A stretch of DNA of 64,000 nt, from IMG/VR virus record IMGVR_UViG_3300005611_000001; one strand, written 5' to 3'. Below, piece after piece: positions 531-59,385 of this stretch. The stretch's first letter is position 1. The number at the start of each line of letters is the position of its first letter. A model generated the notes under the pieces. The model had not been told where the DNA came from and made no database searches. It saw only the letters and a list, made by a program, of their open reading frames with translations. The position numbers and the translations under genes are program-made. The DNA comes from a virus. Its lineage: Duplodnaviria; Caudoviricetes.

Positions 531-807
531 TAATGCAATTTTTGACCTTGAGCAAGAATTTATTAACTGCTGGGAAATCATCGATGATGTGAAAATGATT
601 ACAGATTACTTCACAGATGATCCGAAGTGGAAAGAGATGGATCCTGTTCTTGCAGATGCTCTGATGAATAAATACTATGGGCTTGCAGAAGTCTATGAAC
701 TTAGAATGCAGAAAGCATGGAACACCTTTGAAACTGTCTGCCGTGAATATCACGCAGCCAGACGCGCATCAAAACAAACTTACGGAGTCGAGCATGAAAG
801 CGATTAA
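508..807 (+). CDS. Hypothetical protein
   Basis: 99 aa ORF overlapping its neighbours, phage-like codon usage. Confidence 0.7.
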   Translation: MKMKINHSNAIFDLEQEFINCWEIIDDVKMITDYFTDDPKWKEMDPVLADALMNKYYGLAEVYELRMQKAWNTFETVCREYHAARRASKQTYGVEHESD

Positions 808-1370: not shown

Positions 1371-1604
1371 ATGGCAAACACATTTAAGTTTTATCTTCCT
1401 TTAATAGTAATTTTTGCTCTTTGCGTTTTCGGTCTGTTCGCGCCTGTAATCTACAGCGATGTGTACGGTGAGATTCTGAACAACTCACCAACGCTTTACA
1501 TGCCGATGGTGAATGTTGATTATCTGACCAATGAAATGTGCAATGATCCCACCAAACTGCACTATGTTCTTTGCGGTCTTGATGACTTGAATACTGTAGC
1601 ATAA
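1371..1604 (+). CDS. Small membrane-anchored protein
   Basis: N-terminal hydrophobic helix, GAGG SD. Confidence 0.6.
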   Translation: MANTFKFYLPLIVIFALCVFGLFAPVIYSDVYGEILNNSPTLYMPMVNVDYLTNEMCNDPTKLHYVLCGLDDLNTVA

Positions 1605-1627
1605 TCGGTTATACTATATACTATAGA

Positions 1628-1927
1628 ACGCACTGCTTTGATCTAGAAGTGGCAAAGGCTACAATCAGACTAAGATCCCTCCATTAGGAGGGTACGCGGG
1701 GGAGGATCCCGCAGGCAGTGCGTCTCTTTAGAGTATAGATTGGGCAGAGCGAACATAACTTGGAACATAAACTCGTTGCTTCCAAGTGACTGACCGATTC
1801 CTAAGCGAGGTGCGGAATCCTAGCAATCTATAAAGTCCTAAGGATTTAAAATCCTGGGCAGATTAATCACCGTGCGTGAAACTCGTTTCGGTTTGATTAG
1901 CAGCGGGTGGAAGCCCCGCACCTTTTT
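1628..1927 (+). ncRNA. Unidentified structured RNA (multi-hairpin domains)
   Basis: ORF-free; helices ACGCACTGC/GCAGTGCGT, TATAGATTG/CAATCTATA, ACTTGGAA/TTCCAAGT, GATTCC/GGAATC; ends in a GC hairpin plus T run. Confidence 0.6.
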
Positions 1928-2004
1928 AGAATAGGCACTGAGTATGCTTAAGCATCAGTTAGTCCTGTAGAGTCGCAATCTTGGGCAACAGTGTCTGTTC
2001 TAAT

Positions 2005-2310
2005 TTATTCGATGAAGCGGAGAGAAAGGTGATCTGGACAGAGGTTCAACTCCTCTCACCTCCACCAAAAGCACATACGCTGGATATGCAGATAGCATAT
2101 TGAGACATAAGAAACATCAGGTATGTGCTTTTGATGGGGGTGTACTGGTTTCGACAGGTGCTAAGTATCAAAGTGGAGAATCGTCAAGCGCTGACGCTAA
2201 ACAGAGCAACCTAAAATAAACGCAAACGATGACGTTTATACCGAGGACTTTGCGCTAGCAGCGTAAACCTCGCGGGGTTCGCCGGAGCCTTGTTACCCAA
2301 GTCCGGCACT
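2005..2310 (+). ncRNA. ssrA: Circularly permuted (two-piece) tmRNA; acceptor piece ends CCA 2067, coding piece starts 2136; outer ends approximate
   Basis: T-arm plus CACCTCC-A-CCA (2057-2067) lies upstream of GGGGGTG...TTCGAC (2136); G3-U wobble; tag ORF 2222-2266 ANDDVYTEDFALAA-stop. Confidence 0.9.
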
Positions 2311-2329
2311 AATTCGGAGAAATCTACAA

Positions 2330-4065: not shown

Positions 4066-4371
4066 CTATTTGAGATAAGTTACTTGCTCAACTCTACACA
4101 TTTGAGTTTCGCCATTTACGCTCATTTCGAAATGTGCATTCTTATGAACTCTGCTTTGCTTAATGCCAAACTTCGTTCTTTCATCAAAAACGATTGACAC
4201 AGAAGCACCTTCTAAGTTATGATTGTTGCATGTATGATCAATTTCCCACGCAGCATTTCGATCCGAAACATATATCTTTTCTGATCCAACTTGCCAAGTT
4301 TGCGATTGTTTTACGGGAAAGTTTGCATATGCGCACGGTGTTAAGAGTAATATAAGTAGTAATGCTTTCAT
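4066..4371 (-). CDS. Small exported protein
   Basis: Signal peptide MKALLLILLLTPCAYA; only convincing minus-strand gene in the window. Confidence 0.7.
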   Translation of the reverse strand: MKALLLILLLTPCAYANFPVKQSQTWQVGSEKIYVSDRNAAWEIDHTCNNHNLEGASVSIVFDERTKFGIKQSRVHKNAHFEMSVNGETQMCRVEQVTYLK

Positions 4372-4429
4372 GGTTATACTCCATATTAACTGAGTGTATA
4401 TAGTATATATACGAAATGAGACTTTCATA

Positions 4430-4585
4430 ATGCATAAAAAAGAAAAAAATGACCAATTACTGGTCAAGATCAATAAAGAGACGAAGAAGAAGTTTATCGA
4501 ACTTTGTGAGAAAGACGATACTACTGCGAGCCGAGAAGTTCGAAAGTTTATCGAACGATACATTGAAGGCTTTATTGACGAATGA
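4430..4585 (+). CDS. Ribbon-helix-helix-like DNA-binding protein
   Basis: LLVKINKETKKKFIELC...TASREVRKFI pattern. Confidence 0.6.
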   Translation: MHKKEKNDQLLVKINKETKKKFIELCEKDDTTASREVRKFIERYIEGFIDE

Positions 4586-4809
4586 CTTTAGAGCAACTGA
4601 TCGAAATAGCCAAAGAAGTCGAGGTTGCTGATCCCTTTGACTGGGCGGATGTGGCTATCGGCGAAGACGAAGCGTACCGTCTCATGGCGATGAATTTGAT
4701 AGGCGAAGACTTGACACCAGAGATCATGCTTGCTACAATTGTGAAGTTGTGTGTTGAGAACCTTGTGCTGAATCTGAGACTGTTGCAAAATGAAACCAAA
4801 GTTCCTTAA
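4582..4809 (+). CDS. Hypothetical protein
   Basis: 75 aa ORF coupled to its neighbours. Confidence 0.75.
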   Translation: MTLEQLIEIAKEVEVADPFDWADVAIGEDEAYRLMAMNLIGEDLTPEIMLATIVKLCVENLVLNLRLLQNETKVP

Positions 4810-59136: not shown

Positions 59137-59213
59137 GGCCCGTTAGTTCAGTTGGTTAGAACGCCGCCCTGTCACGGCGGAGGCCACCGGTTCGAGTCCG
59201 GTACGGGTCGCCA
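59137..59213 (+). tRNA. tRNA-Asp(GTC)
   Basis: Cloverleaf, CCGCC-CTGTCAC-GGCGG, encoded CCA. Confidence 0.95.
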
Positions 59214-59249
59214 AAGAATTTGTCCTGCTAAAAGGGCAATAGGGCAATG

Positions 59250-59378
59250 TCCATATCCGATTGTGGATGTTGTCTAACGTGGAATCAACCACGGTCGTTA
59301 ATCGGATACTGCTATGCTGGGCGTCGGCGTAGCGGGAAAATAATCCTCTCTGGCTGACCGGTGGGGATAGGGCGCCCC
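59250..59378 (+). ncRNA. Structured intergenic RNA within the tRNA cluster
   Basis: TATCCGATT/AATCGGATA and GGGCGTC/GGCGCCC closed domains; no tRNA cloverleaf. Confidence 0.5.
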
Positions 59379-59385
59379 AAATTAC

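Follow-up and report, generated by a model that had tools for sequence, protein, structure and literature searches.

Bacteriophage T4 encodes in its tRNA cluster small stable RNAs (species 1 and 2, from rnaC and rnaD) that are tRNA-sized, structured, and of unknown function. Such RNAs are embedded in and co-transcribed with the tRNA genes of T4-type phages and are matured by host enzymes. Modular shuffling in T4-like phages is driven by PeSLs, which are composite terminator/promoter motifs (PMC2839356, PMC4122927), and the marine myophage Melnitz carries a two-piece transfer-messenger RNA (tmRNA) whose extra RNA element is a glutamine riboswitch at the ssrA 3′ domain (PMC9004378). Mimicry of a type III antitoxin by a phage RNA is a proven escape route (PMC3475682), and abiF RNA, the RCd22-type antitoxin RNA of AbiF/Abi_2 toxins, neutralizes AbiF by direct binding (PMC12373285). 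We present here an analysis of positions 1628 to 1927 in a 64,000-nucleotide (nt) stretch, hereafter the window, of IMG/VR virus record IMGVR_UViG_3300005611_000001 (Duplodnaviria; Caudoviricetes). A reading of the sequence made without database searches (the original prediction) had taken this segment for a single unclassified RNA of about 300 nt, built of domains and lying upstream of the tmRNA; comparison with related phages resolves it into RNA cassettes A, B, and C, which occur independently, in other orders, and beside other neighbors.

As in Melnitz, a permuted ssrA with an extra RNA element lies behind an early promoter in a large aquatic phage, but here the extra elements are unclassified cassettes in the 5′ leader, without a riboswitch family match in Rfam. 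As with PeSLs, a large T4-like phage has, in a hyperplastic region, interchangeable cassettes with short conserved borders (stem-loop, T run, and −10-like TAGAAT); PeSLs, however, flank small protein genes, whereas these units are noncoding RNA with inverted repeats forming their own closing helix, and the border promoter is putative, with no −35 found. Unlike the T4 species RNAs, to which they have no sequence similarity (50,697 GenBank phage records), the cassettes are modular, shuffled, and also present in the tmRNA gene. The abiF RNA (Rfam RF03085), which is small and hairpin-closed and combines an invariant loop with a covarying stem, shares slots (the tmRNA leader, beside B, C, and a further cassette, D), junction sequences, and presence/absence behavior with them, yet A, B, and C match it neither in sequence nor in structure. 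The pseudo-ToxI RNA of phage PhiTE (PMC3475682) is a precedent for a phage noncoding RNA that disarms an abortive-infection RNase by mimicry, but it consists of tandem 36-nt repeats, and A to C are single-copy and nonrepetitive. A type III antitoxin (ToxI, CptI, or TenpI) was rejected because BLAST and covariance models found no second copy either in the window or across 251 kb of related phage loci and no toxin gene is adjacent. No bacterial counterpart of A to C was found.

Results

Relatives were collected from IMG/VR and Joint Genome Institute (JGI) metagenomes by exact-word scans and a neighbor-protein search, and their promoter-to-tmRNA regions were lined up. This gave 16 DNA layouts, from viral and metagenome contigs, and one RNA-library contig, in which A, B, C, D, and X (an abiF RNA) are combined and ordered differently with constant boundaries (Table 1). 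The slots are the tmRNA leader, the tmRNA intervening hairpin, and gaps in tRNA arrays, and the cassettes occur only in RNA operons. Because the layouts differ, and include tRNA arrays without a tmRNA, we conclude from these alignments that A, B, and C, which related aquatic phages gain, lose, and reorder, each form an independent unit of fixed extent, that A to D are inserted between the ssrA promoter and the tmRNA, and that the link to ssrA is optional. The predicted co-location with ssrA holds in the window and many relatives; it breaks down in L030, which is cassette-free, and in L001, L031, and L033, where B and/or C occur with no tmRNA nearby. There is one copy of each cassette per genome, and no target-site duplications were seen at the junctions compared; a DNA element resembling a miniature inverted-repeat transposable element (MITE) was rejected on these grounds, in spite of the inverted repeats.

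Cassettes B, D, and J have unrelated cores and the same outer inverted repeat, TTTAGAATA...TATTCTAAA, giving helices of 13 to 16 bp, unlike A, which uses its own closing helix. A second stem type, AAAGCA(CA)TAC..., is common to E, E′, F, h, and the tmRNA intervening hairpins. The C/D, X/B, and K/B borders consist of a stem-loop, a T run, and TAGAAT(A/T)AG, with no matching −35 in the consensus scan.

Conservation of the cassettes exceeds that of their surroundings. In DNA identity to L009, the flanking open reading frames (ORFs) reach 74 to 75% and the tmRNA pieces 82 to 87%, versus 95% for A, 98% for B, 99% for C, and 100% for E; to L015, the values are 76% for the upstream 77-aa ORF, 100% for B, and 99% for C. 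Overall, A to C keep 95 to 100% identity against 74 to 77% for the flanking genes. Since covariance models R1 (A), R2 (B), and R3 (C) found only near-identical copies in the 251 kb of related loci, each cassette is either nearly unchanged or absent, which reflects either recent horizontal spread or unusually strict constraint. In four studies, RNA (metatranscriptome) libraries yielded contigs that cover A in 4 runs, B in 2, and C as far as 1903 in 1, which is weak support for expression; positions 1904 to 2004 are uncovered in the four runs, a hole that proves nothing.

The region from 1605 to 2004 is gene-free (largest ORF, 33 aa) and is bounded by the 77-aa ORF (1371 to 1604) and the permuted tmRNA. 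Against dinucleotide shuffles, the whole of 1628 to 1927 folds with z-scores of −3.3 on the plus strand and −2.4 on the minus strand, and the single cassettes on the plus strand with −5.5 (A), −1.8 (B), −2.05 (C), and −3.9 (D). The plus strand gives the better fold in all cases (C, −28.8 versus −21.8 kcal/mol; D, −27.5 versus −17.7 kcal/mol), and about 10 predicted G-U pairs are specific to it, being A-C mismatches on the other strand. The original prediction is supported in part: the segment is noncoding, lies on the tmRNA strand, is unclassified, is conserved in related phages, and is found in RNA-library contigs. Coding potential was dropped as an explanation, with ORFs of at most 33 aa and cassettes gained and lost independently.

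Rfam release 15 (4227 models) was used for a gathering-threshold scan of the window, which returned only the tmRNA and tRNAs and placed the cassettes in no curated family, and for E≤10 scans of 1400 to 2700 and of 1618 to 2006 (389 nt, relaxed filters), in which whalefall-1 appeared at 17.6 bits (gathering score, 37). Apart from this subthreshold hit no family was matched, in line with the original prediction, which recognized no RNase P, SRP, 6S, or hammerhead core by eye. BLAST (word size 11) gave no match for 1400 to 2700 in the 50,697 phage records or for 1620 to 2005 in PLSDB plasmids and 5,426 Escherichia coli genomes, and an exact 23-mer of B had none in 185,579 species genomes. R2 and R1 had no match in 151 sampled genomes from the class of Alteromonas, a search that is little informative as it lacked a positive control. 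The 16-mer of A's hairpin occurs at 47 IMG/VR loci, two of which R1 scored, at 18 to 19 bits; these two were rejected as cassette A, being ordinary bidirectional terminators in AT-rich phages. A profile search with the upstream 77-aa protein yielded no further islands. For antisense targets, the longest complementarity of A, B, or C to the rest of the window was 10 to 11 nt, equal to shuffled controls. A retron-like RNA with an a1/a2-type closing helix was dropped for want of a reverse transcriptase and a long msd-type hairpin, as was a tRNA-like or Y-RNA-like fold, which has neither a T-loop nor an Rfam match.

The helices and hairpins that the original prediction described in A and B can be read from the sequence, as can the complementarity of two loops in B. 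The closing helix of A (1628 to 1636/1715 to 1723) is extendable to 11 bp. Hairpin 2 (1677 to 1692) is CCCTCC-ATTA-GGAGGG, and hairpin 3 (1696 to 1712) pairs GCGGGG with CCCGC around a loop holding GGAGGAT. Among the four sequence variants of A (95 to 100% identical), one pair of hairpin 3 shows a compensatory change, from CG to UA, and the closing helix has two G-U/A-U switches; the L005 variant does not retain the first inner hairpin and folds that part differently. A is the first element after the promoter in all six layouts that carry it.

Depending on the layout, cassette B follows A, X, the bare promoter, or another RNA, and it also lies within tRNA arrays; its eight variants are 96 to 100% identical. 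Its closing helix is 16 bp in most relatives (TTTAGAATATAGATTG / CAGTCTATATTCTAAA), and its junction strands are GGCAGAGCGAACATA, GACTGACC, and CTAG, which read by eye do not reproduce a hammerhead core. Loop words CTCGTT (1772 to 1777) and AGCGAG (1804 to 1809) are complementary, a 6-nt match with a rough chance of ~0.04 in two loops of this size. The original prediction joined them in a kissing helix and proposed covariation, above all of this loop-loop pair, as a check. Five of the six kissing pairs never vary; the helix is intact in six variants and broken in the seventh (L025), where a G-to-T change in the CTCGTT loop disrupts one pair without compensation. The ACTCGTT heptamer of B also occurs in C, an alternative pairing partner. 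Loop-loop kissing is thus possible, without comparative support. No compensatory changes occur among the variants of B at all, because B hardly varies.

Cassette C, in six variants that are 95 to 99% identical, likewise has no compensatory changes, and seven of its eight variable positions fall in unpaired columns. Of its predicted hairpins, those expected near 1840 to 1855 and 1864 to 1899 were recovered at 1841 to 1855 and 1864 to 1899, and the terminator-like GC hairpin (1903 to 1919) has a 5-bp GC stem followed by ACC and five T's. L006 has an interrupted T run, and in L001, L031, and L033 the run is shorter ahead of tRNA-Met; depending on the phage, C is followed by D, X, or tRNA-Met. Because the downstream tmRNA has no promoter of its own, this hairpin is probably a leaky terminator, causing partial termination at most. 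Cassette D is 80 to 93% identical among relatives, with all four helices kept, and contains 8 doubly changed pairs with 99.4% of cells paired, reached by 0 of 500 shuffles; judged by sequence comparison, D is older than A to C. Covariation was found in part: it is strong in D, with eight pairs, limited to one pair in A, and lacking in B and C, which barely vary.

The k-mers common to cassette types (CAGACTA, GATCCCT, AGTCCT) are at about chance level for the amount of sequence. The only exception is GTCCT-N(4-20)-GGGCA, with three occurrences in 64 kb versus 0.77 expected, all on the plus strand (Table 1); the GTCC..GGGC hairpin is one of D's two, and J, the L016 RNA, and B (there in circular permutation about the closing helix) have related forms. 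The word may represent a motif common to these RNAs, for protein binding or tertiary structure. The third occurrence lies in a 172-nt gap between tRNA-Asp and tRNA-Lys (59214 to 59385), which has no Rfam match and no copy in related loci; positions 59205 to 59395 fold at −82.4 kcal/mol (z, −5.5), and the gap looks like a further unclassified RNA cassette.

Table 1. Positions of features in the window (or in the contig named) and order of elements in each layout
Feature	Position	Strand	Description
sigma70-like promoter	1587..1615	+	TTGAAT, 17-nt spacer, TATACT; consensus scan
Cassette A	1626..1725	+	closing helix around multi-hairpin junction; fold −45.7 kcal/mol, z −5.5
Cassette B	1726..1835	+	three-way junction; closing helix 1734-1742/1824-1832; hairpins 1758-1787, 1796-1819
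Cassette C	1834..1927	+	hairpin GTCC..GGGC 1835-1859; hairpin 1864-1899; terminator-like GC hairpin 1903-1919
Cassette D	1928..2004 (fold scored on 1926-2003)	+	15-bp closing helix (TTAGAATAGGCACTG / CAGTGTCTGTTCTAA), two hairpins
Permuted (two-piece) tmRNA	2005..2325	+	tag ANDDVYTEDFALAA; ARAGORN; Rfam RF04321, 113.9 bits
tmRNA intervening hairpin	~2057-2142	+	tip 2068-2130 = cassette E; E′ copy in L005
GTCCT-N(4-20)-GGGCA	1835-1860 (C), 1962-1987 (D), 59222-59246 (tRNA-array gap)	+	inside RNA-gene islands
X, L001	673-709	-	
X, L007	7820-7857	+	
X, L015	2617-2654	-	
X, L021	1797-1833	-	
X, L022	6769-6805, 6933-6970	-	
X, L025	1714-1750, 1873-1909	-	
X, L026	7821-7857, 7985-8022	-	
Palindromes, L001	~715-775	-	also L002, L025, L026; downstream of A
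Layout, window			promoter-A-B-C-D-tmRNA
Layout, L001			A-X-B-F-C, then tRNA array; no tmRNA nearby
Layout, L002			A-X-tmRNA
Layout, L004			X-tmRNA
Layout, L005			A-B-E′-C-D-tmRNA
Layout, L006			B-C-X-tmRNA
Layout, L012			B-small ORF-tmRNA
Layout, L016			~267-nt RNA-D-H-tmRNA
Layout, L021			another ~230-nt RNA-B-X-tmRNA
Layout, L022			tRNA-tRNA-X-G-X-tmRNA
Layout, L025			A-X-B-X-tmRNA
Layout, L026			A-small ORF-X-G-X-tmRNA
Layout, L030			promoter fused directly to tmRNA
Layout, L031			tRNA-Tyr-D-B-F-C-tRNA-Met, within 23 tRNAs; no tmRNA nearby
Layout, L032			J-h-C; no tmRNA
Layout, L033			tRNA-Tyr-J-h-C-tRNA-Met, within 21 tRNAs; no tmRNA nearby
RNA-library contig			A-B-tmRNA

The promoter has a predicted transcription start at ~1622 to 1625, 1 to 4 nt 5′ of cassette A. 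It is also found after the 77-aa ORF in L001, L002, L004, L005, L006, L025, L026, and L030, in the last of which it abuts the tmRNA directly with no cassette between, and these alignments identify it as the ssrA promoter of the phage group. The consensus scan found no further promoter-like site from 1665 to 2604, hence none of the tmRNA's own; in the scanned region, 6 promoter-like sites were found versus 3.8 expected. The free cassette E′, between B and C in L005, is 92% identical to E at the tip of the window's tmRNA intervening hairpin, and in L004 and L006 the D core stands at the tip of their own tmRNA intervening hairpin.

Cassette X was scored in L001, L007, L015, L021, L022, L025, and L026 and matches abiF RNA at 51 to 57 bits (gathering score, 37). 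Its conserved loop, AAGCCUCU(c/u)AAC(g/a)AUGCUCAAAUCG, is invariant and is closed by a 6-bp stem that covaries. Relatives hold one or two copies directly 5′ of the tmRNA, with no Abi_2 gene nearby. More than 120 bacterial genomes, from many phyla, have the identical 24-nt loop; in Alteromonas indica it lies ~50 nt upstream of an Abi_2 gene (PF07751, 1e-52). Host inference from the loop fails because it is identical across so many phyla. Since the phages carry X without a toxin gene, X is most simply, and probably, a decoy against AbiF abortive infection, a function carried over from bacterial AbiF loci.

Between A and X, a 12-bp palindrome (TTATGCGCATAA / TTATGCACATAA) occurs twice and overlaps a −10-like CATAAT; the two copies look like an operator-controlled promoter of the abiF-like RNA. 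The same slots hold further unclassified structured RNAs of 125 to 270 nt (L021, ~1960 to 2290, minus strand; L016, 194 to 460, plus strand; G in L022 and L026; J in L032 and L033), and the L016 RNA includes an abiF-like motif with ~70 nt inserted into its loop, dividing it. In the 23-tRNA array of L031, ARAGORN reported a tRNA with a four-base anticodon (cagt; 4504 to 4588, minus strand), which may be a frameshift-suppressor-type tRNA or a miscall.

Discussion

We tentatively favor the reading, at a probability of about 0.4, that A to C are accessory RNAs that are co-transcribed, read through, excised, and act in trans as protein decoys. Host RNA polymerase would start a few bases before A and transcribe A, B, and C, and part of the transcription would pass the weak terminator of C into D and the pre-tmRNA. 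Host nucleases would then free each cassette as a compact RNA of ~80 to 110 nt, with RNase III cutting the 11- to 16-bp closing helices and RNase P, RNase E, and exonucleases trimming the tmRNA and tRNA ends, and the freed RNAs would act in trans as decoys or sponges for host RNA-binding defense or RNA-metabolism proteins. The decoy role is proposed because X, the sole member of the pool with a known identity, is the abiF antitoxin RNA. What the comparisons do show is that the cassettes are modular, have a defined strand, belong to RNA operons, are exceptionally conserved, and turn up in RNA-library contigs. A bolder version, which we consider unlikely, would make the leader, intervening loop, and tRNA arrays an "RNA anti-defense island" of exchangeable, host-matured cassettes on shared adapter helices, each neutralizing a different host RNA-binding defense protein; the abiF mimic would be the recognizable member and A to D decoys for undescribed systems.

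Several observations weigh against the decoy reading. Processing, the discrete RNA species, read-through, trans action, and the target are all steps that we infer, and the decoy idea for A to C would derive solely from slots shared with X, whose motif Rfam does not find in 1628 to 1927 or anywhere in the window. A never occurs away from the promoter, so that a cis role fits it at least equally well. B and C alone barely exceed shuffles in fold stability and show no covariation; covariation is uninformative for A to C because they vary too little, and their near-identity could reflect recent spread and not function. The RNA-library contigs show neither ends nor strand, and DNA carry-over is possible. 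Cassette A also contains promoter-like hexamers (TTGATC, 16 nt, TACAAT; 1638 to 1665), which may be chance or an internal start.

A rather unlikely alternative is that the cassettes are selfish or neutral structured spacers without trans function, spread by recombination at shared ends between co-infecting phages and persisting through their location in transcript parts that are discarded (tmRNA leader, intervening segment, and tRNA spacers). Presence or absence with sharp boundaries, and 95 to 100% identity where flanks are at ~75%, is the signature of recent horizontal spread, and the repeats suit such exchange, B, D, and J having a common terminal inverted repeat and E, F, and the tmRNA intervening hairpin sharing the second stem type; the terminator hairpin, T run, and TAGAAT at the junctions resemble PeSL motifs (PMC2839356, PMC4122927), and L030 lives without any cassette. 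Yet the single copy per genome and the missing target-site duplications are unlike MITEs, X is clearly a functional RNA type, the variable positions of C avoid stems, and D, having diverged to 80 to 93% with all helices kept by compensatory change, is selected for its fold. Unlikely, too, is a role as cis-acting leader elements of the RNA operon, with A giving 5′ protection from 5′-end-dependent decay or terminator read-through, C acting as an attenuator, and B and D as RNase III entry sites guiding maturation. The place of A, first after the promoter in every layout carrying it and 1 to 4 nt from the predicted start, agrees with this, as do the terminator-like hairpin and T run of C 5′ of a promoterless tmRNA and the perfect 15- to 16-bp helices of B and D in most relatives. 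In L030, however, the same promoter serves a tmRNA with no cassette, in L004 and L006 it serves one with no A, B and C also lie in tRNA arrays distant from any promoter, and 95 to 100% conservation of loops and junctions far exceeds the need of a stabilizer hairpin or an RNase III site.

It is highly improbable that the cassettes are self-cleaving ribozymes of an undescribed class that cleave the polycistronic tRNA/tmRNA precursor: A to D match none of the ribozyme models in Rfam at E≤10, and no hammerhead, twister, pistol, or hatchet core is visible by eye, although the three-way junction of B, with conserved junction strands and complementary loops, is built in the manner typical of small ribozymes. 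Beside cassettes in L031 (~4330 to 4400, minus strand) and L033 (2718 to 2796, minus strand), immediately 5′ of tRNA-Tyr, there does stand a hammerhead-like core (CTGATGA, 4-bp stem, GAAAC, 8-bp stem, GTA), which has weak Rfam matches (RAGATH-1-hammerhead, 23 bits; Hammerhead_1, 18 bits; E ~0.2), and could be a minimal ribozyme freeing the 5′ side of the tRNA; new ribozyme classes were reportedly found beside known ones by Weinberg et al. in 2015, which counts for this explanation. We give the least credence to one ~300-nt multidomain RNA running from promoter to terminator, with B locked by a kissing helix. The promoter and the hairpin region at 1903 to 1927 do bracket A-B-C, the order A-B..C recurs in L005, and six of seven B variants have the loop complementarity; but each of A, B, and C is found without the others, A and B are separated by X (L001, L025) and B and C by E′ or F (L005, L001, L031), and the one change seen in the kissing helix disrupts it. 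The modular layouts contradict this model.

Phage tRNA clusters and tmRNA genes, usually read as translation aids, are here also landing pads for interchangeable noncoding RNA cassettes. One cassette type, X, can be recognized as an antitoxin mimic; A to D, together with at least six other types in relatives, are unclassified RNA families, with A to C 95 to 100% identical across diverged phages. If the cassettes are decoys acting in trans, they would be pointers to unknown host RNA-binding defense factors and an RNA counter-defense delivered via the tRNA-processing machinery. If they are selfish spacers, they would be a clean case of RNA-gene cassette shuffling, the noncoding counterpart of PeSL-mediated gene shuffling.
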